From a virus: 46,520 nucleotides of DNA. Position 1 is the first letter of the stretch, and each line of letters begins with the position of its first letter. Shown piece after piece: positions 1,164 to 45,256 of the stretch. The notes beneath the pieces were generated by a model, which had not been told where the DNA came from, searched no databases, and was given only the letters and a program-made list of their open reading frames with translations. The position numbers and the translations under genes are program-made. The stretch is taken from UHGV virus genome UHGV-1365321. One strand, given 5' to 3'.

Positions 1164-1184
1164 AATCTACATCAAGCCACGTCA
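1164..1184. promoter_or_regulatory. conserved motif copy AATCTACATCAA plus degenerate second copy CCACGTCA
   Basis: Intergenic between the exonuclease start and the VRR-NUC gene end. On the minus strand it reads TTGATGTAGATT upstream of the exonuclease gene. Confidence 0.4.
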
Positions 1185-1598
1185 TTCATCAAGCCCAAAA
1201 TAGAATAACGTAGCCTTTTTTATCTCATTAAGACCATAAGCAATGGCGCCAAAGTGACCCTCTGCAATGGCGCACTCAAGAACCTCAATCTGCGATGGCG
1301 ATACTTTTGATTTTGTCTTATCACGCCTCTTCAGTTCAATCAGGCCGCATTTATGATTAACACCGTGGGTTAGTATCACATTGTCGCTTACGCCGCTCCT
1401 GACGCCCATTTTTCGGCGTTTTTCGATGAATTGCGGACCACTCTTTGTGCCGGTCTCATTTGGAACATGAAACCAAAGAGCATCAGGAAAACGGTATTGC
1501 ATCCACAGACCATAGGCCATCTGGTCAGATTCCTCCCTTGGGCACTCCCCGCGATAACCGCTATCAAATACCCATATTCCACTATCAAGCTGCTTCAA
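1182..1598 (-). CDS. VRR-NUC domain nuclease
   Basis: 138 aa. Has GVSDNVIL ... GLIELK ... SPSQ, typical of the VRR-NUC PD-(D/E)XK fold. Confidence 0.6.
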   Translation of the reverse strand: MKQLDSGIWVFDSGYRGECPREESDQMAYGLWMQYRFPDALWFHVPNETGTKSGPQFIEKRRKMGVRSGVSDNVILTHGVNHKCGLIELKRRDKTKSKVSPSQIEVLECAIAEGHFGAIAYGLNEIKKATLFYFGLDE

Positions 1599-4051: not shown

Positions 4052-4573
4052 TTATTTCAATCGACCAAAATCTTTGTGGTATTTTTTAGATGCTATTGCA
4101 TACGCCATTGCGGCTGCTTCTTTTGTGGCATGCCTTCCAAGCCATATTTTTTTATTATTAACCCATATCCAGCAAGTCCATCTACCTGTCTGCTTGCAAA
4201 AACCTACACCTTTCACTCCTGATGTGTTGTGTTTTGGGGTTCTCATGTTTCTAACATTTTCGTTAAAGTTTGCCTCTCTAAGGTTTTCTATTTTGTTGTT
4301 TAAAGGATTCCCATCGATATGGTCTATTATTAACTCAGGCCAATAACCATGCACTAACGCCCATATTATTCTATGAACCTTTATATCAAAGCCTAAAAAA
4401 CCAACCTGAAGATATCCACTTACAGTCTTTGAGCCTGCAATAGCACCACGTTTCACCCTGTTTGTTGTTGTTCTTTTCCATATGAGATTTATTCCGTCAT
4501 ATGAAAAATACTCATGCAGCGTGGATACTGGTATTGACCTCTCTTTTGACTTCATCAATTCGAAATCATTCAC
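4052..4573 (-). CDS. HNH homing endonuclease with AP2 domain (copy 2 of 3)
   Basis: 173 aa with HRIIWALVHG..IDHIDGNPLNNKIENLR and SGVKGVGF..RWTCWI. Confidence 0.75.
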   Translation of the reverse strand: MNDFELMKSKERSIPVSTLHEYFSYDGINLIWKRTTTNRVKRGAIAGSKTVSGYLQVGFLGFDIKVHRIIWALVHGYWPELIIDHIDGNPLNNKIENLREANFNENVRNMRTPKHNTSGVKGVGFCKQTGRWTCWIWVNNKKIWLGRHATKEAAAMAYAIASKKYHKDFGRLK

Positions 4574-4635
4574 TTTACGTTACCCTCATTCAGTGTTACG
4601 CTTAAAGCATACAAACAGTAACAGATGGAGTCAAC

Positions 4636-7455: not shown

Positions 7456-7476
7456 AACTCCTCCTTATTTTTTGTG

Positions 7477-7505
7477 ATTATAAAATATTAAATAAATCGG
7501 CGCAA
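7477..7505 (-). promoter_or_regulatory. early-left promoter (sigma70-like TTGCGC-17-TATAAT on minus strand)
   Basis: Read from the sequence: -10 at 7477..7482 (minus), -35 at 7500..7505, followed by SD AAGGAGGAGTT. Confidence 0.6.
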
Positions 7506-7537
7506 TACCTTACCTGCTTGTTCGCGGGTCGTGCTTC

Positions 7538-7822
7538 GGGTTGAAATGGATAAAGTTGGATAAGCGTTTGGATAAGTGTTTTTACATACTATGTATATGT
7601 ATTTACTACTATTATTATCAATAGATAGTAGTATTTATCCAATTCAACCCATTTTTTGCTTTGCGTTTTTTGAGCACAAAAATACATCCAACTTTTTCCA
7701 GTTGTCTCTCTCAGGATAATGGGTTAAGGGATAAATGGTTGAGCAGAATGTAAGTTAATGAATAAAAACGGTTATCTATGGTTAAATCAAAAAAAATATT
7801 GGGTTGAATGGGTTGAGCGTGG
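7538..7822. repeat. putative origin of replication: iteron arrays flanking an AT-rich unwinding element
   Basis: GGATAA(G/A) at 7548, 7558 and 7570 (roughly helical spacing), with further copies at 7714 and 7728. GGGTTGA(A/G) at 7538, 7737, 7802 and 7811, plus an inverted copy at 7641..7650. The AT-rich 7580..7640 contains the inverted repeat CTACTAT..ATAGATAGTAG. Confidence 0.6.
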
Positions 7823-7896
7823 TATATAAATATCAATGACTTATGAAATTGATAACTGTAAGTGACTACTAACCATATTTTATTTTCACCATCATG

Positions 7897-7925
7897 TTGA
7901 CGTAGATTTAGCGCCATCGTATAGT
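7897..7925 (+). promoter_or_regulatory. early-right promoter TTGACG-17-TATAGT (the -35 is part of the motif TTGACGTAGATT)
   Basis: Near-consensus sigma70 spacing; followed by SD AAGAGGTGA and the gene at 7957. Confidence 0.7.
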
Positions 7926-7956
7926 TACCACACCAACAGCAAAGAGGTGATGAAGA

Positions 7957-8142
7957 ATGACCAAAGCAATCTACACGCGCACTCAACTGGAGCCAGAAAT
8001 GGGCGCAGTGAAAGCGCAAAACTTTATGATGGCGCAGGCAATGCATGCATACAGCAACGGTAAGCGCGTCTGTCGCGTTTTTAGTGGCGAAGGCAAGCAG
8101 AGAGTGCTTGAGCTGGTTATCGTGTCATCTGGTGGAAACTAA
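7957..8142 (+). CDS. hypothetical early protein
   Basis: 61 aa ORF with good SD. Confidence 0.55.
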   Translation: MTKAIYTRTQLEPEMGAVKAQNFMMAQAMHAYSNGKRVCRVFSGEGKQRVLELVIVSSGGN

Positions 8143-8157
8143 ACCGGTTTAGCAACG

Positions 8158-10713: not shown

Positions 10714-10737
10714 CCCGCTTCGGCGGGTTCTTTTTTT
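10714..10737 (+). terminator. rho-independent terminator ending the early-right operon
   Basis: ACCCGC-TTCG-GCGGGT followed by T8. Confidence 0.8.
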
Positions 10738-10761
10738 ATCTACGCCATGTGTTAATATACT
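10738..10761 (+). promoter_or_regulatory. motif variant ATCTACGCCA followed by extended -10 TGtTAATAT, upstream of terS
   Basis: Read from the sequence. Confidence 0.4.
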
Positions 10762-12656: not shown

Positions 12657-12690
12657 GAAAAAGCCCCGATAAAGGGGCGATCTATTATCT
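12655..12690. terminator. bidirectional terminator between terL and dam
   Basis: GCCCC-GATAAA-GGGGC flanked by an A-run and a T-rich tract. Confidence 0.6.
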
Positions 12691-13380
12691 CAACTTGAAC
12701 AATTTTTCTACTGACGGCTTTGAATGGCCTGACCTGCCATTGGCGCTTAGGCTGCTTTTTACATCAAACTCTGCAATGCATTCAAAGTCACCTGGAGCTT
12801 TATATTCGCTGATATAAACATCGCATCTTCTTGATAAATCCCTAGCCCAATCCCAAAAATCATCATTATTAAACGAATCCTTGTAACCAGTGGTGCCAGC
12901 ATACGGAGGGTCGCAGTACACAATTGAGCCGCTCTCTATTTGCATCTCATCATAACTAAGACTAGAGAAAATGACGCCTTTTAGGTTTTTAATTTGCTGG
13001 GCTGCATTCTTTATTGCTTCGGCCTGGTAATCCCTCCTGCCACATCTTGTCTCTACTATTCCAGCATACCCGCCGAACCATTTCCCGCTGTACGAGCAAG
13101 CTATGCCAGCCCACCCTATAAGATGGTCATCACCCTCGAGATTCTTGAGCTTCGCATATTCATCTCTACTTATAAACTCAGGATTCCATCCGGCGCATAG
13201 CGCCTTAAATGCAGCAATAACGTACTTATTACTGTCGTTAGCAAACCTTATCTTTGCATCCCTGACGCCATCAATCATATTCATGCCGCCAGCAAATGGC
13301 TCATAGTAGTTCCTGCCACCAGTATTAAGTAAAGGGATGATTTTATTTTTAAGTCTTGCTTTGCTGCCCATGTATTTCAT
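12685..13380 (-). CDS. dam: DNA N6-adenine methyltransferase (Dam family)
   Basis: 231 aa with MKYMGSKARL, EPFAGG and the catalytic DPPY motif. Confidence 0.85.
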   Translation of the reverse strand: MKYMGSKARLKNKIIPLLNTGGRNYYEPFAGGMNMIDGVRDAKIRFANDSNKYVIAAFKALCAGWNPEFISRDEYAKLKNLEGDDHLIGWAGIACSYSGKWFGGYAGIVETRCGRRDYQAEAIKNAAQQIKNLKGVIFSSLSYDEMQIESGSIVYCDPPYAGTTGYKDSFNNDDFWDWARDLSRRCDVYISEYKAPGDFECIAEFDVKSSLSANGRSGHSKPSVEKLFKLR

Positions 13381-13407: not shown

Positions 13408-13436
13408 AATCTACATCAACCACGAATCCACGTCAA
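13408..13436 (-). promoter_or_regulatory. tandem motif pair upstream of dam; on the minus strand it reads TTGACGTGGATT-cgtgg-TTGATGTAGATT, giving -35 TTGACG, a 17 bp spacer and -10 TAGATT
   Basis: The second motif copy supplies the -10 hexamer at sigma70 spacing. Confidence 0.5.
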
Positions 13437-13449
13437 CATTTATAATAAA

Positions 13450-13740
13450 TTATTTGTAAAGCCAGCAATGAATCCCCGCATTTCGCATTGCGGCATAAAT
13501 CACGTCATCAGACACGACCGCCATCGCCACCCTGTCTGCGTCAATCTGCTGGTGCGAAGCCATGATGTCATCATAGAAAACATCGTTAGCATGCAGCCAC
13601 TCATATGCATGCTTTGCCCTAATAATCAGCACATCATGCCCAGCAGAGTAGAGCGACTTAGCCAGCGCTACGTTGCCAGCAATAGCATTTCCTTCCGCAT
13701 CACGCAGCACACCATCAAGCTCGAAAATGACACATTTCAT
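13450..13740 (-). CDS. small HAD-like protein (DxDGV motif I)
   Basis: 96 aa with an MKCVIFELDGVL N-terminus. Confidence 0.4.
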   Translation of the reverse strand: MKCVIFELDGVLRDAEGNAIAGNVALAKSLYSAGHDVLIIRAKHAYEWLHANDVFYDDIMASHQQIDADRVAMAVVSDDVIYAAMRNAGIHCWLYK

Positions 13741-13766
13741 AAGATTTCTCCGAGAGGTTTCATTTT

Positions 13767-13795
13767 AATCTACGCCATGCTAGAATCTACGTCAA
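13767..13795 (-). promoter_or_regulatory. tandem motif pair; on the minus strand it reads TTGACGTAGATT-ctagcatg-GCGTAGATT (-35 TTGACG, 17 bp, -10 TAGATT) for gene 13740(-)
   Basis: Read from the sequence. The plus-strand gene 13829 lies immediately downstream; a separate TTGACA is at 13802. Confidence 0.5.
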
Positions 13796-13828: not shown

Positions 13829-14068
13829 ATGAAGGCATACTCATCTTTTTCGTGGGAGCAGAAGGAAAAAATATACTCACTCGCAAGAGCTGGTGTGTCG
13901 GATGAGGCACTGTGCGAAAGGTATGATGTGGATGAGGCCATTCTGCTGCGCATGTATGATGAAGTGCTGTGTGAGTTGCAGCGGAGGCGTGGTTATAGTG
14001 GCCTAAAGACGATTAACGATTTCTTTCGGAATGTTGAGTTAAATAACGATGAGGGTGGTGATTTATGA
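13829..14068 (+). CDS. hypothetical protein
   Basis: 79 aa ORF. Confidence 0.5.
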   Translation: MKAYSSFSWEQKEKIYSLARAGVSDEALCERYDVDEAILLRMYDEVLCELQRRRGYSGLKTINDFFRNVELNNDEGGDL

Positions 14069-18898: not shown

Positions 18899-18921
18899 TT
18901 TTTACTCTCCTGTGTTTGTGT

Positions 18922-18974
18922 ATCTACATCATCGCTTACGATTCAATCTACGTCAAGTATTTTTATGATATAAT
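18922..18974 (+). promoter_or_regulatory. two motif copies (ATCTACATCA, AATCTACGTCAA) followed by extended -10 TGaTATAAT for gene 19014
   Basis: Read from the sequence. Confidence 0.5.
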
Positions 18975-21197: not shown

Positions 21198-21560
21198 TTA
21201 TTTACCAGCCTCCTCTGTCACTTTTTCCTTGGCGGCAGCGCGAAACAGCGTCGCGGTCAGATAAAATCCACCAAGCCAGAAATAACCAAGCGCGAACATT
21301 ACTGCTATTTCGCAAAATGTCGTCACAGCCTGGTATTTATGATGAATCCATAGCGGCTTTTTGTAGCGAGCAACGGATTTATCAAGCAGGTCTTTGCTTG
21401 ACAGCAAGCCAACCGATGCAATGATTGACGCAATCGACATGAACCAGAAAAAAGCCACAGCCATATTGTATGCATACACATTCTGCATAAACAGGCCGAA
21501 GTAAATCAGCGGCCACGTCAGGAGGATATCCCATGCGATGTTTTTCAGGAGTCTTTTCAT
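21198..21560 (-). CDS. polytopic membrane protein
   Basis: 120 aa with 3-4 predicted TM helices. Confidence 0.6.
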   Translation of the reverse strand: MKRLLKNIAWDILLTWPLIYFGLFMQNVYAYNMAVAFFWFMSIASIIASVGLLSSKDLLDKSVARYKKPLWIHHKYQAVTTFCEIAVMFALGYFWLGGFYLTATLFRAAAKEKVTEEAGK

Positions 21561-22474: not shown

Positions 22475-22500
22475 TTGACTAATCTACGTCAATTAGTCAA
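22475..22500. promoter_or_regulatory. perfect 9 bp inverted repeat TTGACTAAT-CTACGTCA-ATTAGTCAA embedding the conserved motif; operator in a divergent promoter region
   Basis: Read from the sequence. Confidence 0.6.
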
Positions 22501-22546
22501 TACTAGGTGTTGTAGATTGTATCATAGTTGCGAGAGGTGGTGTGGA

Positions 22547-22762
22547 ATGAAGAAGTGGCAGGAGGTGACAGAAGTTCATAAGCGCGATTGCCGGGAGACT
22601 CTGCAAATGCTTAATGTGCCAGAGTCAATCATTAAATCTATCGAGCAGCGCATTGACCTCGCTGCTATGGAGGCCGCCCATGAAGCCGAGGAAGCGCAAA
22701 TGTTGTCATGGATGGACAGAACTCTACCGGGCGTTTTACGTCGTGGTAAGACTACCGATTGA
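22547..22762 (+). CDS. hypothetical protein
   Basis: 71 aa with SD GAGAGGTGG. Confidence 0.5.
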   Translation: MKKWQEVTEVHKRDCRETLQMLNVPESIIKSIEQRIDLAAMEAAHEAEEAQMLSWMDRTLPGVLRRGKTTD

Positions 22763-23037: not shown

Positions 23038-23270
23038 AACCAATGATGAATGATGAGAAATTACTAGAGTGTCCGTTTTGCGGTAGCGAAAATTCCATGC
23101 GGAACAAGGATGGGCAATGGCATTTTGTAGTATGCCAGGATTGCGGCTGCCGTACTGATGACTGGATGGTTGCGGCGACAGCAATCATTAAATGGAATAC
23201 CAGAAATGGCCACCTCTATACCGCTGACGACTACAAGCAAGATGCAATGGAGCGCGCAAATGGACTTTAA
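23034..23270 (+). CDS. Lar-family-like restriction alleviation / zinc-ribbon protein (tentative)
   Basis: CPFCGSENS...CQDCGC. Confidence 0.4.
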   Translation: MKPMMNDEKLLECPFCGSENSMRNKDGQWHFVVCQDCGCRTDDWMVAATAIIKWNTRNGHLYTADDYKQDAMERANGL

Positions 23271-23730
23271 AACGCAAATACTCACGGTGATAGAGCGCTG
23301 CGGCGGCGCAACCAATGCCATGATACGCAAGCAGACTGGCATGACAAACCGAGCCGGCGTTACAGGCTATCTGATTGAGCTGGAGGGTATGGGATTTATT
23401 ATTAAAGAGGAAAGCGTCAGCTATGGCAGGCGCTGCTTTAAGTATTTCCTCAATCCCGATAATACTGCGCTCGATTTGGCTATTCAGAGTTATCTTGAGG
23501 CGAATCCTGGGCGTAAGAGCAAGCAGATAGCAGAGGCTGTCGGCGTCAACTACACCATTCTCAAGGCACGCATGCGCTATCTGGCAAGCATTGGTCAGGT
23601 TGACCGTGAAATGCTTCCCGGCGGTGCATGGAAATATTACTGGCAGGAGATCATCCCGTTTGGCATGAGCCGTGACAGGATGATGTTTGAAAAGCTGCTT
23701 GCCGGGGCACGTCAGTCATGTGGGCGGTAA
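23260..23730 (+). CDS. winged-helix-like DNA-binding protein (tentative)
   Basis: 156 aa starting MDFKTQILTVIERCGGATNAMIRKQTGMT. Confidence 0.4.
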   Translation: MDFKTQILTVIERCGGATNAMIRKQTGMTNRAGVTGYLIELEGMGFIIKEESVSYGRRCFKYFLNPDNTALDLAIQSYLEANPGRKSKQIAEAVGVNYTILKARMRYLASIGQVDREMLPGGAWKYYWQEIIPFGMSRDRMMFEKLLAGARQSCGR

Positions 23731-24009: not shown

Positions 24010-24354
24010 ATGAAACTACAACTTAACGAAATCATGGAAGCAACAATCAGCGAACTGGATGACATTGATATGACGCTTGCCTTTGAGATTGAGGCTATCG
24101 AGCGCCAGCTTGCTGGCAATCAGAATGGAAATAAGGTATGGAGAGAGAAGGCCATGAAGGCGAAGGGACACATGCAGCGCACCCGCGCGCTGGTTCGCAC
24201 TCGCCTTGATAAGCTCTATTACGGCGAAGAAAGAATGTTACACGGCGCCATTCTGGCTGAAATCCGCAAAACGATGCCTGTCGGGAAATTTATGGATGCC
24301 GTAAACCGCGCAAAAGTTAACTGCGGAATGTTAAATAAGAATAGTCCTCAATAA
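24010..24354 (+). CDS. hypothetical protein
   Basis: 114 aa ORF. Confidence 0.5.
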   Translation: MKLQLNEIMEATISELDDIDMTLAFEIEAIERQLAGNQNGNKVWREKAMKAKGHMQRTRALVRTRLDKLYYGEERMLHGAILAEIRKTMPVGKFMDAVNRAKVNCGMLNKNSPQ

Positions 24355-24536
24355 ATTCTCTTCCGTGGCTGTTACCTTGCACTCAGGAGGTAGCAGCCAT
24401 GCCAATCATACTGATATCATTCTTTGCTACTCTTTTCGCTTTTACCGCATCTCCGCTTTACCTTCTCGCGTCCGTTTCGTGGTGCGTATTCATGGTGTGT
24501 TATAATCCGGGCATAAAGTAAGCGCGGAGAAAGGTC

Positions 24537-25937
24537 ATGATTGTCAAAATTGGCGGCAAGTGGGTCGTTAAATCTAAGGATGGCTCGCACCAGTTTGGCG
24601 AGTACGACACCGAAGAGGCGGCGAAAAAGCGCCTTGCTGAGGTGGAGGAATTCAAGCACATGAATAATAAATTACAGGTTAACATCCTGTATACCATCAA
24701 CTCAGCCAGCAACATCAGTGAAAAAATCATTGATGGCGACCCGCATTATGTCATCAAGAATGTTGTGCCGGTGGTGGATGACATCGTCATGAATGGCGGT
24801 CTGTACCCTGGCGATGAGATTAAAAAGTCATTCCATGGTCTTGACGGGAAACCGGCGCCATATGACCACCCGAAGATTGATGGCAAATATGTGTCAGCAA
24901 ACATGACGCGAGCCGCCAATCAGTTCAGCGTTGGTGCATGGATTGAGAACTCATCTCATGACGGCAGCAAAGCACTGGTAGACCTTTATATTAACAAGGT
25001 GGTGGCTGAGCGCTCTGATAAAGGCAGGGAATTGCTGTCGCGCATTGACGGACTCAAAGTTAACGGCGCCGATGCTGAACCTGTTCAGGTGTCTACCGGT
25101 CTGTTACTCAACCGCGAGCAGGCATCAGGAACTTCTAAGGGCAAAAAATATTCCTGGATTGCCCGGAATATGGAGTGGGATCACCTCGCCATTCTTCCAC
25201 CTGGCATTCCAGGTGCTGGCGGCCCTGCTGATGGTGTCGGTATCTTTGCTGCTAACGGCGAAGACATTGAGCGCGTTGTAGTTAACCTTGAGGAATCAGC
25301 AATGACCGACGAAAGTGCAAACAAAATCAAATGGTGGCAGCGCGCCATCAATCGACTGACTGGGAATCAGCTGTCATTCACTGATATTACTGAGCAACTC
25401 CGCAATATCATCAAGGCAGAGACTCAGTCTGATGTATGGCCCTATATCGTCGCCGTTTATGATAATTACTTCGGCGTTGAGATTGACGGCACCATTTATA
25501 TGCAGTCCTACATCGTCCGCGAGGATATGGTAGAATTAGTCGGTGAACGGGTTAAGGCTGTTTATAAGACAGAGCTTGAACCGGTAAAAACAACTCAAGG
25601 GGAAATCTCAATGACTAACGAGGAATTACAGGCTGTATTAGCCGATGCCCTCAAACCGGTTCAGGAATCGTTGACCGCAGTCAACCAGAAACTGGCCGAT
25701 GTGGAGGCGCAAAACAAAACCCTGCGCGACCAGCTGCAAGCCAATGCCGCACAGGAAGAAACCGCAATGCGCGCCGCCATTATGGCTGAGCTGAAGTTGC
25801 CGGAATCTGCTGTTAATGCGCTGACTGGCGAAGCACTGCGTGAAACCTATGCGCTCACCAGTAAAGCGGCTCCGATTTCCGGCGGGTTCCAGCCGAACCG
25901 TGCCGAAGAAGGTTTTGATATGGAGGCACCTGAATAA
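24537..25937 (+). CDS. prohead scaffold/protease-like protein (DUF2213-like N-terminus plus coiled-coil C-terminus), tentative
   Basis: 466 aa immediately upstream of a decoration-like gene and the capsid gene. Confidence 0.45.
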
Positions 25938-28804: not shown

Positions 28805-29065
28805 TTAGCCCTCATCATTAATGCTATGCAGTTTTCCACCGCAGAATGGGCAGAAGTTCAGGATTACAGGGCTGCCATTTCCTGACTGGTATGTAATTTT
28901 TTTCCCAAGAGATTCTCCAGTTGAAATCAACATAGAATGACCAGCAACCAGACCTTTTGTTTTTTTGTTGGACACATATTGAAGATATTCAGCCAGGTGC
29001 GCGCAGATATTAGTAGCATAACGCTTCCCTTGGCTTGCGCATGGAATTAATTTATTTGTCATCAC
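28805..29065 (-). CDS. small zinc-ribbon protein
   Basis: 86 aa with a C-terminal CPFCGGKL. Confidence 0.5.
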   Translation of the reverse strand: MMTNKLIPCASQGKRYATNICAHLAEYLQYVSNKKTKGLVAGHSMLISTGESLGKKITYQSGNGSPVILNFCPFCGGKLHSINDEG

Positions 29066-29877
29066 AGCTTCTCCAGAATCGCCAGCACTTCACTCAACTC
29101 AGCGGAAGGAAGGCGCAAAAATTCTTCTGTCTCCTGCGCCACATGTCCCTCAGCAACAACCATGTGATCTGCTTCTTTCAGCAACTGAATCAGGCGGTCA
29201 ATCGGCTTAACTTTTTTGGCCTTGAGAGTTTTAGCTGTCACCTTATCCTTGCCCTGCGCTTTCGCTTCCTCAACGGCGGCATCAATAACGTTAACGGCAT
29301 CATCGCCATGCTCACGTGCGACCGCAACGGCGTTGGCATAGCTGATTTGGCCTGCATTGATGCGTTGCTTGATAGCATCAGGCACATCACCAAGTGACAG
29401 GTGCATCTGCACATCAGAAACTGAGCGGCCTACCTTTTTGGCGATCTCTTCATTCGTCCATCCGAACCCTTTGAGGCGCACATAAGCCTTTGCACGCTCA
29501 AGCGGGTCGAGTTGCTTACCCTGACTGGATGACACCATGAAGGCGATTTTATCTGCTTCATCGCCGGTGAAGTCTTTGCACTCAATGCGCGCAATTGGCA
29601 CGCCGCGCTCAATGGCACACAGTGCGCCAAGATAACGATGCTGGCCGTCAAGAATCTTGATGCGCTTTCCGTCGGCATCAGGAATAACAGTTAACGCCGG
29701 GATTGGCTGGCCTGATTCCCAGCACTGCGCGAAGTATTCAACGTGCTGTTCATCGGCTTCGCGGATGTTGTACCCCGGCTCAAGATAAAGCTGATCGACA
29801 GGAACCTGATAACCTTTATTGACCACGATTCCGCCGCGAGTTTCTTTGTCTGAGTAAATTTTTCCGAGAGATGTCAT
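29062..29877 (-). CDS. ParB-like nuclease (ParB/Srx N-terminal) domain protein with HTH
   Basis: 271 aa with ILDGQHRYLGA motif and SD GAGGAAAAG. Confidence 0.7.
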   Translation of the reverse strand: MTSLGKIYSDKETRGGIVVNKGYQVPVDQLYLEPGYNIREADEQHVEYFAQCWESGQPIPALTVIPDADGKRIKILDGQHRYLGALCAIERGVPIARIECKDFTGDEADKIAFMVSSSQGKQLDPLERAKAYVRLKGFGWTNEEIAKKVGRSVSDVQMHLSLGDVPDAIKQRINAGQISYANAVAVAREHGDDAVNVIDAAVEEAKAQGKDKVTAKTLKAKKVKPIDRLIQLLKEADHMVVAEGHVAQETEEFLRLPSAELSEVLAILEKL

Positions 29878-29884
29878 CTTTTCC

Positions 29885-30001
29885 TCACTTCGATAAGCAA
29901 TAAAAACTAATAACGGAAACACTAATAACGATAACCGCCAGTTGAATCTTGAACTTGAGCCATCCCCTCTGGTCTTCTTTGCGGATTTCGTGGCGGATCA
30001 T
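29885..30001 (-). CDS. 38 aa membrane peptide, ATGA-coupled
   Basis: Sequence ...LAVIVISVSVISFYCLSK. Confidence 0.3.
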   Translation of the reverse strand: MIRHEIRKEDQRGWLKFKIQLAVIVISVSVISFYCLSK

Positions 30002-30210
30002 ATGAACTCCCCAGTGGCCTTCAAATACTTCCTTCCATCATCTGTTAATACAAAAGATGGGAAGCTAAATCTGGTTCCATTGTTCGAATCCTTTACCAGC
30101 CCCAACTCAACGAGCTTCTGCCTTGATTTTGGCATCCAATGTGCAGGGTATCCATTTGTTCTTCTTATTTCCTTAAGGCATTTAAGTTGATTTTTTGTTA
30201 ATGAAATCAT
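29998..30210 (-). CDS. small winged-helix-like protein
   Basis: 70 aa ORF. Confidence 0.45.
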   Translation of the reverse strand: MISLTKNQLKCLKEIRRTNGYPAHWMPKSRQKLVELGLVKDSNNGTRFSFPSFVLTDDGRKYLKATGEFI

Positions 30211-30543: not shown

Positions 30544-30600
30544 TTCTACGTCATCACTATAGCGACAACCTCAATCTACGTCAACACTTTATGATAAAAT
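30544..30600. promoter_or_regulatory. two motif copies (TTCTACGTCA, AATCTACGTCAA) followed by extended -10 TGaTAAAAT
   Basis: Read from the sequence. Confidence 0.5.
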
Positions 30601-32666: not shown

Positions 32667-32744
32667 TGGTTCCCGCGACAGGATTCGAACCTGTAATCAT
32701 CAGATTATGATTCGGGTGCTTTAACCAGTTAAGCTAAACGGGAA
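32667..32744 (-). tRNA. tRNA-like gene with encoded CCA; anticodon probably CAU (Met or Ile2) but the anticodon arm is non-canonical
   Basis: Reverse complement has acceptor stem TTCCCGT/GCGGGAA, D arm GCTT-AACTGGTTA-AAGC, T arm ACAGG-TTCGAAT-CCTGT and 3' CCA. Canonical geometry gives loop AUCAUAA with 2 of 5 stem mismatches; the alternative pairing AAUCA/UGAUU gives an 8-nt loop. Confidence 0.65.
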
Positions 32745-32963
32745 TTTGGTGCGCCGCTTCAACCGTGAATCTGGTGCCAGAATAACCTATCTAAGATAGT
32801 TTATTTAGCATTGCAGTCCAGAGGATATCAGTTCGACGACTTTAGGGTGATCAGCCCATTTCATATGTATTGTTGTGGCCCTGGTGCCTCCAGGTTGCTG
32901 GTAGGTAAATCCAGCAGGCATAACAATTCACCAGTGTATCTCTACCTTGCCACGTGCGCATAG

Positions 32964-33299
32964 CCGCATTACCACAACGATAAGATCACTGCACTTTGCT
33001 TCGTACTCCGTGGCAATCAAGTCCACCATGTAAACCTGCAATGCTCTTACCCGTTGTGTGTTGTGGTGGCCGGTGCTGATCTCCGGCTTGCGATGTCACG
33101 AATTGGCTACAGTAGAACGTCCGCTCTGCTACTGGTCATGAGCGCATCAGCCTGCGCATTCACCACAACGGAAAGAGCACTGAACGCTGCATTATGGCTC
33201 TATCTCAGCTGCGCCGACTGCAGTCCCGATATGACCAACCCATGAGAGGGTATCTGCCAATTACTTTTATGCTCGGTCAATGCTCTTACCTGTTGTGTG
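32964..33299. repeat. two tandem paralogous non-coding elements (A 32964..33069, B 33154..33299)
   Basis: Both begin GCGCATT(A/CA)CCACAACG(A/G)NAAGANCACTG and end CAATGCTCTTACC(C/T)GTTGTGTG. The termini are partly self-complementary (CCACAACG / CGTTGTGG). Confidence 0.5.
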
Positions 33300-33470
33300 C
33301 CCATTATTAATCACACCGGGCCAGTGCGCCGAATTCATTGACAAGGATTCGGAAGACCTTGCTGGTGTTTAGCCGTTAGGCTACTGCCAGATACATTTCT
33401 TCGTTTGCATTTATCTTTGTGGTCAGTTTCTAAAAACCCGCAAAGTCGCACCGAAAACTATCTGATATTT

Positions 33471-33510
33471 AATCTACACCACCAATCAAAACCTGTCAAC
33501 ATGATATAAT
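33471..33510 (+). promoter_or_regulatory. motif variant AATCTACACCACC followed by extended -10 TGaTATAAT, promoter of the major tail gene
   Basis: Read from the sequence. Confidence 0.5.
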
Positions 33511-33544
33511 GCGATTGTTTAGCTAAACACAGAGGATTCTAAAC

Positions 33545-34303: not shown

Positions 34304-34328
34304 AAACCCCCGAAAGGGGGTTTATTTT
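34304..34328. terminator. bidirectional terminator
   Basis: AAAACCCCC-GAAA-GGGGGTTT followed by a T-run. Confidence 0.8.
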
Positions 34329-34543
34329 AATGTCCAGCTAATATTATTGAGGAAGAAATCGCTGCGAACTCTTTTTACTAATCCTCGCTTTTCCATATCC
34401 TTTAATTTCCTCAGCACTGATGGCGTATCTATTCCTTTATACTTGTAAGAGAGCAGATTTCTAACGTAATATGTAGGTTCACCATTGCGCATTTTACCAA
34501 GGCACTTCAAAACATCATAATCCTGAATAAGCGCTATTCTCAT
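34322..34543 (-). CDS. small winged-helix-like protein (alternative start 34573)
   Basis: MRIALIQDYDVLKCLGKMRNGEPTYYVRNLL... Confidence 0.45.
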   Translation of the reverse strand: MRIALIQDYDVLKCLGKMRNGEPTYYVRNLLSYKYKGIDTPSVLRKLKDMEKRGLVKRVRSDFFLNNISWTLK

Positions 34544-34692
34544 GCCTTCCTCGCCTTGTTCTTGATGCCCCACAAAATCAGATTGGCAATAAACTCAGAT
34601 CGTCTCAGGTGAATTGCTATCGCATAGTTTATGTCGATGCGCTGGCCTGCATATGCAGATATCACATCTTCGTCATCTTTGTTAACTGGCAT
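34540..34692 (-). CDS. 50 aa hypothetical protein
   Basis: Coupled with overlapping neighbours; competes with the 3' end of 34682..34987. Confidence 0.3.
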   Translation of the reverse strand: MPVNKDDEDVISAYAGQRIDINYAIAIHLRRSEFIANLILWGIKNKARKA

Positions 34693-35147: not shown

Positions 35148-35187
35148 CAATCTACGTCAGTTTTGCGCCCCCTGTCAATGGTATAAT
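35148..35187 (+). promoter_or_regulatory. motif CAATCTACGTCA followed by extended -10 TGgTATAAT, upstream of the chaperone/TMP operon
   Basis: Read from the sequence. Confidence 0.5.
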
Positions 35188-45236: not shown

Positions 45237-45256
45237 ATTTAGCATTAATGCTAAAT
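45237..45256. promoter_or_regulatory. perfect 20 bp palindrome ATTTAGCATTAATGCTAAAT
   Basis: Read from the sequence. Confidence 0.5.

Follow-up and report, generated by a model that had tools for sequence, protein, structure and literature searches.

A directional 12-base box as a putative two-register sigma70-type promoter element, possibly read by a second factor, in Klebsiella and Salmonella siphophages

Introduction

In phage phi29, protein p4 acts on closely packed divergent early (A2b and A2c) and late (A3) promoters that are served by a host-type polymerase; its sites are inverted repeats bound by dimers in a single switch region, and one bound protein could repress the early promoters and favour the late one. 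The middle promoters of phage T4 carry an asymmetric MotA box near position -30 and keep the sigma70 -10 element, often as an extended -10. In the case of the KorB/ParB proteins of plasmid RK2, one site, a palindrome of 13-16 bp, is present at many promoters of a small replicon. The operator/stoperator sites of cluster A mycobacteriophages (recognized by L5 gp71 or the TipsytheTRex repressor) are asymmetric, 12-13 bp long and present in many copies, and are located in promoters and short intergenic spaces with an orientation that tracks the direction of transcription; the protein that reads the L5-type site is monomeric and has two DNA-binding domains (PMC9283540). The PeSL elements of T4-like phages are conserved early-promoter motifs, composites of promoter and terminator hairpins, which flank variable accessory ORFs and coincide with junctions of insertions or replacements (PMC2839356, PMC4122927).

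The DNA analysed here (the window, 46,520 nt in its whole length) belongs to a Roufvirus-like Klebsiella siphophage; its assignment as a T1-like Webervirus was considered and rejected. Phages of this family are under development for therapy and biocontrol against Klebsiella and Salmonella. Our search of the literature revealed no transcript data for the family, nothing on the timing of its gene expression, and no published description of its promoter system or of the 12-base box described below. Comparison of sequences leads us to propose, with moderate confidence, that this box, TTGA(C/T)GTAGATT, is a directional sigma70-type promoter box of the phage family which is also read by a second factor.

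Sequence and placement of the box

A sequence-only reading of the window had proposed that a conserved 12-mer marks nearly every transcription-unit boundary. The 12-mer is real: AATCTACRTCAA matches exactly at seven positions (1164, 7897 as reverse complement, 13408, 13784, 18945, 22481, and 30573) against 0.01 expected, and none of 100 shuffles of the window reached seven. Degenerate copies are present at 13425, 13767, 18921, 30543, 33471, 35149, and 22507 (reverse complement), and a weak orphan copy of doubtful function at 10737 (Table 1). About 14 copies in the window fit a weight matrix, which at a threshold of at least 11 bits gives 17 matches versus 5.1 in shuffles. Four of the coordinates first given for the copies were corrected by 1-3 nt (18922 to 18921, 22484 to 22481, 30544 to 30543, and 35148 to 35149).

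The intergenic location of the copies was borne out as well. Fifteen of the 17 matrix matches are intergenic, and the true box copies are located exclusively in non-coding DNA, which represents 8% of the window (3782 of 46,520 nt are intergenic). The 8-mer AATCTACG is the top enriched intergenic word, with six intergenic and no coding occurrences, and the top-scoring coding match to the weight matrix (27573, TTGACGAAGATT) has an invariant position broken.

The logo of 14 paralogous sites reads n-T-G-A/g-C/t-G-T-A-G-A-T-T, with seven invariant positions; the consensus is asymmetric, not palindromic, and contains no inverted repeat. Written as TTGAYGTAGATT, the box is always directed at a gene start nearby. 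The genes headed by it form leftward cassettes and two rightward early units, one of which, starting at 22547, contains a Lar-like gene and the gene of a winged-helix protein. As the box heads eight leftward and two rightward units in the window, its association with unit starts stands, but "nearly every" boundary was an overstatement: no box is found at 4574-4635 or at the leftward start 7456, and three rightward extended -10 promoters (15050, 40418, and 42991) are without one as well.

A search of Rfam at the boxes found nothing, and a role of the box at the RNA level was rejected, since in addition the boxes are upstream of all predicted start sites. We know of no host consensus sequence (FNR, IHF, DnaA, MetJ, NarL, H-NS, and others) to which the box would be a convincing match.

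Table 1. Copies of the box, associated promoter elements and candidate reader genes in the window
Feature	Position	Strand	Remarks
Box TTGATGTAGATT	1164..1175	-	TAGATT is -10, 26 nt before exonuclease gene start (1137)
-35 TTGATG of the 1164 box promoter	1187-1192	-	17 nt upstream
Box TTGACGTAGATT	7897..7908	+	TTGACG is -35 of rightward early unit starting at 7957
-10 TATAGT	7926..7931	+	17 nt after TTGACG of box 7897
Weak orphan box ATGGCGTAGATA	10737..10748	-	Adjoins terminator; no leftward gene
Proximal box TTGATGTAGATT	13408..13419	-	TAGATT is -10, 27 nt before dam start (13380)
Distal box TTGACGTGGATT	13425..13436	-	TTGACG is -35 of dam promoter; 17-bp period
Proximal box ATGGCGTAGATT	13767..13778	-	TAGATT is -10, 26 nt before start of gene 13740
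Rightward extended -10 TGCTAGAAT	13778..13786	+	Overlaps boxes 13767 and 13784; serves unit starting at 13829
Distal box TTGACGTAGATT	13784..13795	-	TTGACG is -35; 17-bp period to box 13767
Proximal box ATGATGTAGATA	18921..18932	-	22 nt before start of gene 18898
-10 GATGAT	18928-18933	-	Overlapped by proximal box 18921
Distal box TTGACGTAGATT	18945..18956	-	-35; 24-bp period to proximal box 18921
Rightward extended -10 TGATATAAT	18966..18974	+	Back-to-back with box 18945
Box TTGACGTAGATT	22481..22492	-	29 nt before leftward gene start 22451
Box GTGTTGTAGATT	22507..22518	+	28 nt before rightward unit start 22547
Candidate reader, tandem winged-helix protein	23260..23730	+	156 aa; two predicted winged-helix domains
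ParB/Spo0J/KorB-type protein	29062..29877	-	81% identical in Salmonella phages
Proximal box ATGACGTAGAAA	30543..30554	-	Covers predicted start-site region; 27 nt before start 30515
-10 TATAGT	30556..30561	-	17 nt after TTGACG of box 30573
Distal box TTGACGTAGATT	30573..30584	-	-35; both halves nearly invariant, 11-nt spacer varies (78 loci)
Rightward extended -10 TGATAAAAT	30592..30600	+	
Box GTGGTGTAGATT	33471..33482	-	-10 of leftward promoter
-35 TTGACA of the 33471 leftward promoter	33494..33499	-	2 nt from rightward extended -10
Rightward extended -10	33502-33510	+	2 nt from leftward -35 at 33494
Box CTGACGTAGATT	35149..35160	-	-10, 30 nt before start 35118
-35 TTGACA of the 35149 leftward promoter	35173..35178	-	Abuts rightward extended -10
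Rightward extended -10 TGGTATAAT	35179-35187	+	Abutted by leftward -35 at 35173

Two predicted promoter registers

The box occurs in two predicted sigma70 registers. In the first, its TTGACG half is the -35 element, and exactly 17 nt downstream follows a -10 element, either TATAGT or GATGAT or else the TAGATT half of another box. In the second, the TAGATT half is the -10 element, with 22-30 nt between the end of the proximal box and the start codon in eight cases; the -35 element is then a TTGACA outside any box or is supplied as TTGAYG by a box further upstream. The resulting hexamer pairs are spaced by 16-18 bp: TTGACG-17-TAGATT and TTGACG-17-TATAGT (two sites each), TTGACG-17-GATGAT, and TTGACA-17/18-TAGATT. 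The earlier proposal that the box is a -35/-10 building block, whose copies repeated at 17 bp make complete sigma70-type promoters, is thus upheld for the promoters of dam (13436-13408) and of gene 13740 (13795-13767), and so is the assignment of TTGACG at 7897 as a -35 element, with TATAGT 17 nt downstream. One 12-mer that serves as a -35 or a -10 element depending on register, and as a complete promoter when repeated, is an unusual design. The predicted promoter at 33471 fires leftward into an ORF-free stretch of about 720 nt that ends at a tRNA-Met gene (32667-32743).

An unbiased selection of promoters in non-coding DNA (TTGAC[AG]-N16-18-TAnnnT) divided the promoters cleanly: of 11 with a TTGACG -35 element, 9 have a TAGATT-like hexamer after it, and a TTGACA -35 element was paired with a box at -10 in six of seven. 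The same selection in T1 returned one promoter, which is without a box.

These features could also be explained by plain sigma70 promoters alone, without a further factor; the 12-mer would then be two joined promoter hexamers, copies of which resemble each other owing to duplication or exchange of cassettes or to flanking bases that tune promoter strength. Both halves are indeed good sigma70 hexamers, the 17-bp tandem period is the exact sigma70 spacing, and AT-rich, UP-like tracts are located upstream of the boxes in the -35 register. However, position 6 of the box is invariably G, though sigma70 prefers TTGACA, and the canonical TTGACA is used wherever the box does not occupy the -35 position. 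The sigma70 reading itself is weaker at the pairs with a 24-bp period (18921/18945, and 39321/39345 in L001).

For boxes 22481 and 22507 no convincing -35 element was found 17 nt upstream of TAGATT. These boxes, located 28-29 nt before a start codon with no usable -35, might suggest a self-sufficient -10-only element of 11-12 bases whose reader would be a polymerase modified by the phage or a cryptic sigma-like factor of phage origin, in the manner of T4 gp55, which reads TATAAATA. The invariant T, G, and G at -17, -16, and -13 beside TAGATT would fit such an element. On the other side, neither a sigma-like nor a polymerase gene was recognised in the annotations of relatives or among the proteins scanned with Pfam and PHROGs, and the conservation of a -10 element at exactly 17 nt from the -35-register boxes is ordinary sigma70 logic, which leaves this explanation hardly any credit. 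An analogy to promoters of phage single-subunit RNA polymerases likewise fails, as the annotations of seven related genomes list no gene for an RNA polymerase.

Relation of the box to rightward promoters

The extended -10 elements proposed at 18966, 30592, 33502, and 35179 were confirmed, and the box was originally thought to lie upstream of such elements and to support bidirectional late or moron expression. A possible form of this idea is that a box-bound phage regulator activates the rightward extended -10 (late) promoters, much as phi29 p4 or T4 MotA would, while the reverse complement of the box serves the leftward ones. All four promoters are devoid of a -35 element, the gap between box and extended -10 is 10-22 nt, and the centres of the boxes are at about -30.5 (18966), -28.5 (30592), -40.5 (33502), and -39.5 (35179), i.e., roughly one helical turn apart. 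The box centres near -30 of 18966 and 30592 resemble the position of the MotA box in T4 middle promoters. However, the position of the box at rightward promoters is inconstant, at 13778 it overlaps the -10 itself, and three of the eight rightward extended -10 promoters (15050, 40418, and 42991, presumed late promoters) lack it, while at the leftward promoters the box itself, unlike the MotA box, is a good -35 or -10 element. The copies at 1164 and 13408/13425 lie between genes that both run leftward, at sites that have no rightward unit. The spacing of the box is tight to leftward start codons (22-30 nt) and loose to rightward elements, and a Pfam or PHROGs scan of 19 early or small proteins detected nothing like MotA or AsiA. 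We consider the bidirectional code distinctly unlikely.

Because the rightward extended -10 promoters also occur without a box and at variable distances from it, the link between the two appears to be largely a by-product of back-to-back divergent promoters, although an activating role of the box at rightward promoters is conceivable. The content of the box-driven units suggests that they are early or accessory rather than late, contrary to the late or moron expression proposed before.

The arrangement of divergent promoters is similar to that of the phi29 p4 switch in that a leftward -35 element abuts a rightward extended -10 element at 33494/33502 and 35173/35179. Here, however, the element is an asymmetric 12-mer repeated at about ten regions, as opposed to inverted repeats in one switch region, and no p4 homolog was seen.

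Conservation of the box in related phages

The box recurs at orthologous sites in the Salmonella phages Vi II-E1 and KFS-SE2 and is absent from T1, which served as a negative control. By sequence, the box-bearing family comprises Roufvirus-like Klebsiella phages and the Salmonella phage genera Macdonaldcampvirus and Skatevirus; the portal region has matches in 227 INPHARED records. Box density amounts to 0.2-0.3 sites/kb versus 0.01 in shuffles in lineages down to about 67% ParB identity, and no box was found at loci with ParB homologs of 42-44% identity. In five Klebsiella-phage genomes and Vi II-E1 all intergenic copies face the downstream gene. In orthologs of the 7897 promoter the 17-nt spacing from TTGACG is kept while the -10 element varies (TATAGT, TAGTTT, or TATATT); the Vi II-E1 ortholog, too, retains this spacing with a different -10.

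Evidence for a second reader comes from the half of the box that is not needed by sigma70. At the 30573-type promoter, compared in 78 loci (32 distinct sequences), the fraction of minority bases is 0.016 in the AATCTA half and 0.005 in the CGTCAA half, but 0.276 in the spacer of 11 nt and, beyond the box, 0.268. Variation in the spacer is about 17 times that of the adjoining half, with which sigma70 makes no contact. Among 47 loci with the 35149-type promoter, no majority-changing variation occurs in the box, including its CTGACG half, which is invariant, whereas 11 of 12 columns of the remaining spacer vary. The 33471-type promoter shows about the same degree of conservation in box and spacer. 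The unneeded half is kept also across genera whose spacers cannot be aligned. Since this half is as conserved as the needed one, the whole 12-mer is probably a docking site of a regulator as well, which lends support to the earlier view of the box as a regulator site. Plain promoters would not require such conservation, and gene conversion cannot maintain a sequence as short as twelve bases; we regard the plain-promoter explanation as unlikely, though it merits attention.

A scan of IMG/VR for tandem boxes gave 40 matches, mostly by chance or to repeats in coding sequence; relatives are represented just by L032, L035, and L043. An unexplained orphan is L029, an unrelated contig with three perfect boxes in a divergent intergenic region, which may point to a property recognised by the machinery of the host, as plain promoters would have it.

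Candidate readers of the box

Among the known sites similar to the box are those of the L5 type. Like them, the box is asymmetric, has about 14 intergenic copies oriented with transcription, and occurs between co-directional genes (1164, 13408/13425), where the 1164 copy may be an internal promoter or a stoperator-like site; a predicted tandem winged-helix protein, encoded at 23260-23730, offers a counterpart of the two-domain reader. In contrast to the temperate L5-type phages, whose sites serve immunity, no integrase or immunity repressor is annotated in seven relatives, and the phage of the window looks virulent. Moreover, the winged-helix and ParB-like candidates match no gp71-type repressor by sequence, the former has no fold match to such a repressor either, and the box itself supplies the -35 and -10 hexamers in two registers.

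Among the three regulators named in the sequence-only reading, the winged-helix protein 23260-23730 is present in all box-bearing relatives and appears to be the best candidate. The other two were rejected, being absent from all six box-keeping relatives: ORF 29998-30210 has no Pfam match, and ORF 34322-34573 has only a sub-threshold match to MarR. Searches of PDB by sequence and fold with the winged-helix protein gave only generic matches of the MarR, PadR, and SelB types. Its identity to the Salmonella-phage version falls to about 35%, although the box there is unchanged, which would be easier to reconcile with a conserved factor of the host or with the ParB-like protein (81% conserved).

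The ParB-like protein recalls the RK2 system, where a KorB/ParB-family protein acts on one site at many promoters of a small replicon. It is the weaker candidate because its gene was deleted in VLCpiS13d, which keeps all its boxes, and as the box, unlike the KorB/ParB sites, is not palindromic, it was judged an unlikely reader. KorB-OB-like palindromes of the window are unlikely to be its site, since they are not conserved in the Salmonella phages despite an identical HTH. The co-occurrence of the box with ParB homologs cannot discriminate between candidates, as the box follows the whole phage family.

A possible early-to-late switch

In the mechanism that we propose, the box would be built into host sigma70-type promoters which drive the counter-oriented early or accessory cassettes and the two rightward early units. 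The second reader is most likely a repressor or switch protein, judging from the sequence: with the box overlapping one of the two promoter hexamers, -35 or -10, a factor bound to it would repress the early promoters. The early promoters are arranged back-to-back with the extended -10 promoters of structural genes and overlap them in part, and owing to this arrangement occupancy of the box could shift RNA polymerase from early to late transcription. An asymmetric site would suit a monomer with two DNA-binding domains, for which the 23260-23730 protein would be the best candidate. A more far-reaching version, in which a phage-encoded monomeric two-domain protein of this kind reads all boxes as a genome-wide early-to-late switch, is tentative and rather improbable. 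Such a protein, made from a box promoter, would fill all boxes, turn the early and accessory promoters off, and free or stimulate the overlapping extended -10 late promoters. If so, this would be an early-to-late switch in a virulent siphophage family in which the operator itself is a fused -35/-10 module.

Whichever factor reads it, the box provides a directly testable map of about ten promoters per genome and predicts co-expressed cassettes, including swapped-in dam, methylases, HNH genes, and superinfection-immunity genes. It may serve as a short DNA bait in the search for the regulator and as a compact synthetic promoter/operator part.

The box at cassette borders

The box is located at gene-replacement junctions (35149 and 13408), as are the PeSL elements of T4-like phages, which suggests a role in recombination. 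Three different cassettes at 35149 and two at 13408 begin directly after TAGATT, and sequence divergence at these loci is total directly after TAGATT(g). Genes downstream of boxes (dam, 29998, 34322, 28805, and 21198) occur in none of six relatives of the window, and the phage encodes a pair of exonuclease VIII and an annealing protein. The box could accordingly be viewed as a linker, a short homology at cassette borders for swaps of accessory genes between phages, a role that has been proposed for the PeSL motifs. However, a linker would account neither for the fixed distance from box to start codon nor for the 17-nt register and the rule of orientation, and twelve bases are a poor substrate for homologous exchange. 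In contrast to PeSL, the box is much shorter and has no hairpin, the terminators being located at the far ends of the cassettes. As the principal function of the box, such a linker is very unlikely, but exchange at these borders is compatible with our main proposal, of which it would be a side effect.

Box copies and their orientation

The window covers nearly the whole genome of a Roufvirus-type Klebsiella siphophage. At the DNA level it is about 91% identical to Aeromonas phage pIS4-A and to numerous Klebsiella phages, and many of its proteins share 96-100% identity with their pIS4-A counterparts. Its assignment as a T1-like Webervirus was rejected, and T1 served as a negative control. A 'Roufvirinae' cluster has been proposed for this phage group in a paper on a related phage (PMC11769527). 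Structural and lysis genes form long rightward blocks, broken up by short leftward cassettes that carry DNA-metabolism and accessory genes and each end in a hairpin terminator.

The recurrent 12-mer TTGA(C/T)GTAGATT (the box), noticed in the sequence-only reading with four coordinates off by 1-3 nt, proved to be real. AATCTACRTCAA occurs in seven exact copies in the window vs. 0.01 expected, and AATCTACG is the top over-represented intergenic 8-mer (six intergenic and no coding copies; 8% of the genome is intergenic). A weight matrix trained on the window's copies alone gave 17 matches of at least 11 bits in the window, 15 of them intergenic, vs. 5.1 in shuffles. At 10737 there is only a weak, orphan copy. 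The logo of 14 paralogous copies on the TTGAYGTAGATT strand is n-T-G-A/g-C/t-G-T-A-G-A-T-T, with no variation at T2, G3, G6, T7, G9 and A10 and a single deviating site each at A8 and T11 (13 of 14 agree). In the TTGAYGTAGATT reading, all intergenic copies are directed at a nearby gene start, and in eight cases the box closest to the gene ends 22-30 nt before the start codon. Full-text literature searches on the sequence, the genera, and the promoters or transcriptomes of these phages found no description of the motif.

Predicted box promoters and associated elements in the window
Feature	Position (nt)	Strand	Details
Box, TTGACG as -35	7897		-10 at 17 nt, TATAGT
Box, TTGACG as -35	13425		-10 at 17 nt, TAGATT
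Box, TTGACG as -35	13784		-10 at 17 nt, TAGATT
Box, TTGACG as -35	18945		-10 at 17 nt, GATGAT
Box, TTGACG as -35	30573		-10 at 17 nt, TATAGT
Boxes, TAGATT as -10	1164, 13408, 13767, 33471, 35149
Units faced by boxes	starts 1137, 13380, 13740, 18898, 22451, 30515, 35118	-
Unit leading to tRNA-Met		-	also faced by box
Unit faced by box	start 7957	+
Unit faced by box	start 22547	+	Lar-like gene and winged-helix gene
Structural-gene promoters	13778, 15050, 18966, 30592, 33502, 35179, 40418, 42991	+	extended -10 TGnTAnAAT without -35
Window-unique genes	12685-13380 (dam methylase), 21198-21560, 28805-29062, 29998-30210, 34322-34543	-	cassettes downstream of box promoters
Palindrome TGTTTAGCTAAACA			5' leader of major tail gene; kept in 4/4 Klebsiella-phage relatives
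Palindrome ATTTAGCATTAATGCTAAAT			window only
Palindrome CTAAACCGGTTTAG			kept in 3/4 Klebsiella-phage relatives

Predicted reading by sigma70 polymerase

When promoters were selected independently of the box (TTGAC[AG], 16-18 nt, TAnnnT, in non-coding DNA), the six bases following a TTGACG -35 were TAGATT-like in 9 of 11 cases from three lineages, and a full box lay directly after it in the other two. For TTGACA as -35, a box supplied the -10 in six of seven cases, as TAGATT with nTGryG before it; the same selection found a single, boxless promoter in T1. We infer that the host sigma70 polymerase reads the box promoters, whose start sites are predicted. The strongest sequence argument is provided by the 7897 ortholog, where the -10 varies between genera (TATAGT, TAGTTT, TATATT) and always lies 17 nt from TTGACG. 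One GenBank record labels the 35149 ortholog 'host promoter'. The approximately 720 nt upstream of tRNA-Met (32667-32743, minus strand; region 32667-33470), which contain no convincing ORF, appear to be transcribed leftward from box promoter 33471. This leader matched no Rfam family and had a folding z-score of -2.3; in relatives the same region contains tRNA-Met and tRNA-Arg.

Conservation of the whole box

At the promoter of 30573 type (78 related loci, 32 distinct sequences, anchored on the ribosome-binding region of the leftward gene and the -10), the minority-base fraction was 0.005 in the CGTCAA half that forms the -35 and 0.016 in the AATCTA half (-29 to -24), which is outside the sigma70 reading, vs. 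0.276 in the 11-nt spacer and 0.268 in the 12 nt past the box. In the 35149 type, variation affects 11 of 12 spacer columns (47 loci, 26 distinct sequences), and the CTGACG adjoining the -10 has rare variants only. The box/spacer contrast is absent from the 33471 type because the whole region is conserved there. Sigma70 prefers TTGACA, and position 6 of the box is always G. The conservation of the half not read by sigma70, the invariant G6 and the retention of boxes between genera whose spacers can no longer be aligned are taken as evidence for a putative second factor that would read the whole 12-mer.

Judged from the genomes compared, the box signal is spread over the whole family. Salmonella phage Vi II-E1 (Macdonaldcampvirus), with portal DNA about 70% identical to that of the window, has 26 matrix matches, at least 16 of them intergenic and all of these facing the downstream gene, and in Salmonella phage KFS-SE2 (Skatevirus) the box is at the same orthologous positions. 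The six matches in T1 are at the level of shuffles, and none of them is intergenic. A further lineage of IMG/VR loci, in which the ParB-like protein is 67-68% identical, has 0.24-0.29 boxes per kb vs. 0.01 in shuffles; loci whose ParB homologs are only 42-44% identical have no box. A 4.4-kb viral contig (L029, IMGVR_UViG_3300028925_011877) without detectable similarity to the window or any INPHARED phage contains three perfect TTGACGTAGATT boxes, in both directions, in a single divergent intergenic region (600-780), as well as ACGTCAACTGCGTCA repeats. The box may have been adopted there independently, or its presence may hint at a reader on the host side.

Candidate readers

Among the winged-helix proteins proposed as regulators in the sequence-only reading, those encoded at 29998 and 34322 are absent from all six box-keeping relatives and were discarded, while that at 23260 is still a candidate. 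All box-bearing genomes encode this 156-aa protein (23260-23730), T1 does not, and a box promoter precedes the unit that holds its gene. The protein is modelled with two tandem winged-helix domains (mean pLDDT of 74.5, from a shallow alignment of 16 sequences), and its fold matches are generic: MarR, PadR and multi-winged-helix proteins. Such a two-domain monomer is what an asymmetric 12-mer would require, but the Salmonella phages combine an unchanged box with a version of the protein that shares only about 35% identity. An L5-type repressor reads an asymmetric 13-mer as a two-domain monomer (PMC9283540).

The second candidate, encoded at 29062-29877 (minus strand), is a genuine member of the ParB/Spo0J/KorB family, here encoded by an apparently virulent siphophage. 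Within this phage family it is one of the most conserved proteins, with 81% identity to its Salmonella phage counterparts and an identical helix-turn-helix. However, the box is not palindromic and thus lacks the symmetry of KorB/ParB operators, and in phage VLCpiS13d only 25 codons of the gene are left, so that it is dispensable, yet the boxes are retained. Three perfect palindromes with KorB-operator-like half sites (TGTTTAGCTAAACA, ATTTAGCATTAATGCTAAAT and CTAAACCGGTTTAG) are located at 33516-33529, 45237-45256 and 8139-8152; Vi II-E1 and KFS-SE2 have none of them. The reader may also be a host factor conserved among enterobacteria.

Proposed switch and known analogs

The rightward extended -10 promoters without recognisable -35 appear to constitute a second, separate class serving structural-gene units, and leftward promoters lie back-to-back with them. 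At 33494/33502 and 35173/35179, the -35 of the leftward promoter touches the extended -10 of the rightward one, and the rightward -10 at 13778 falls within a leftward spacer. Since the box overlaps the -35 at some leftward promoters and the -10 at others, the putative reader fits a repressor rather than an activator of those promoters. Once bound, it would repress them; two polymerases could not occupy both back-to-back promoters at once, so that repression of one could favour the other. The same factor could possibly also activate rightward promoters, as box centres near -30 and -40 of these are about one helical turn apart. However, three of the eight rightward promoters are boxless and box-to-(-10) distances vary, so the previously proposed rule that plus-orientation boxes precede an extended -10 is mainly a by-product of the back-to-back layout. 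Loci 1164 and 13408/13425 lie between co-directional leftward genes, where no rightward unit can be involved.

In mode of working, the closest analog of this putative repression is found in cluster A mycobacteriophages, in their operator/stoperator system. Both have asymmetric sites that occur in many intergenic copies and are oriented with transcription; the mycobacteriophage sites are read by a two-domain monomer, for which the winged-helix protein is the candidate here. The two differ in repressor family, which neither of the two DNA-binding candidates matched, and in the temperate lifestyle, as no integrase or immunity repressor is annotated in seven relatives. The proposed early-to-late switch has partial parallels in the phi29 p4 switch and in T4 MotA boxes. 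No p4 homolog was seen, no MotA or AsiA homolog was found among 19 early or small proteins scanned with Pfam or PHROGs, and box centres lie near -30, the MotA-box position, at two of the rightward promoters and near -40 at two others.

Cassette exchange

At two loci, 35149 (with three different cassettes) and 13408, identity between relatives ends directly after TAGATT(g). Compared with six relatives, only the window has dam and four other small ORFs 3' of boxes, and these look like swapped-in accessory genes. Box promoters thus act as fixed sockets for exchanged genes, a role that we regard as a consequence of promoter function and not as the primary function of the box. The sockets resemble PeSL motifs of T4-like phages (PMC2839356, PMC4122927), but the box has no hairpin.

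An HNH endonuclease gene sits in the divergent helicase/primase region (4052-4635); the intergenic stretch 4574-4635 has no box in the window, and two HNH-less relatives (L001 and L008) have two boxes there with a 24-bp period. In another relative, Klebsiella phage vB_Kpn_ZCKp20p (L005), an annotated TnpB-family RNA-guided endonuclease gene (24132-25262, minus strand) is inserted between tail-completion genes. Directly upstream of box promoter 7897, 501 non-coding nt (7456-7956) with four copies of TTATCCA (DnaA-box core) within 7547-7641, beside an AT-rich tract and many inverted repeats, represent a candidate replication origin or packaging region.
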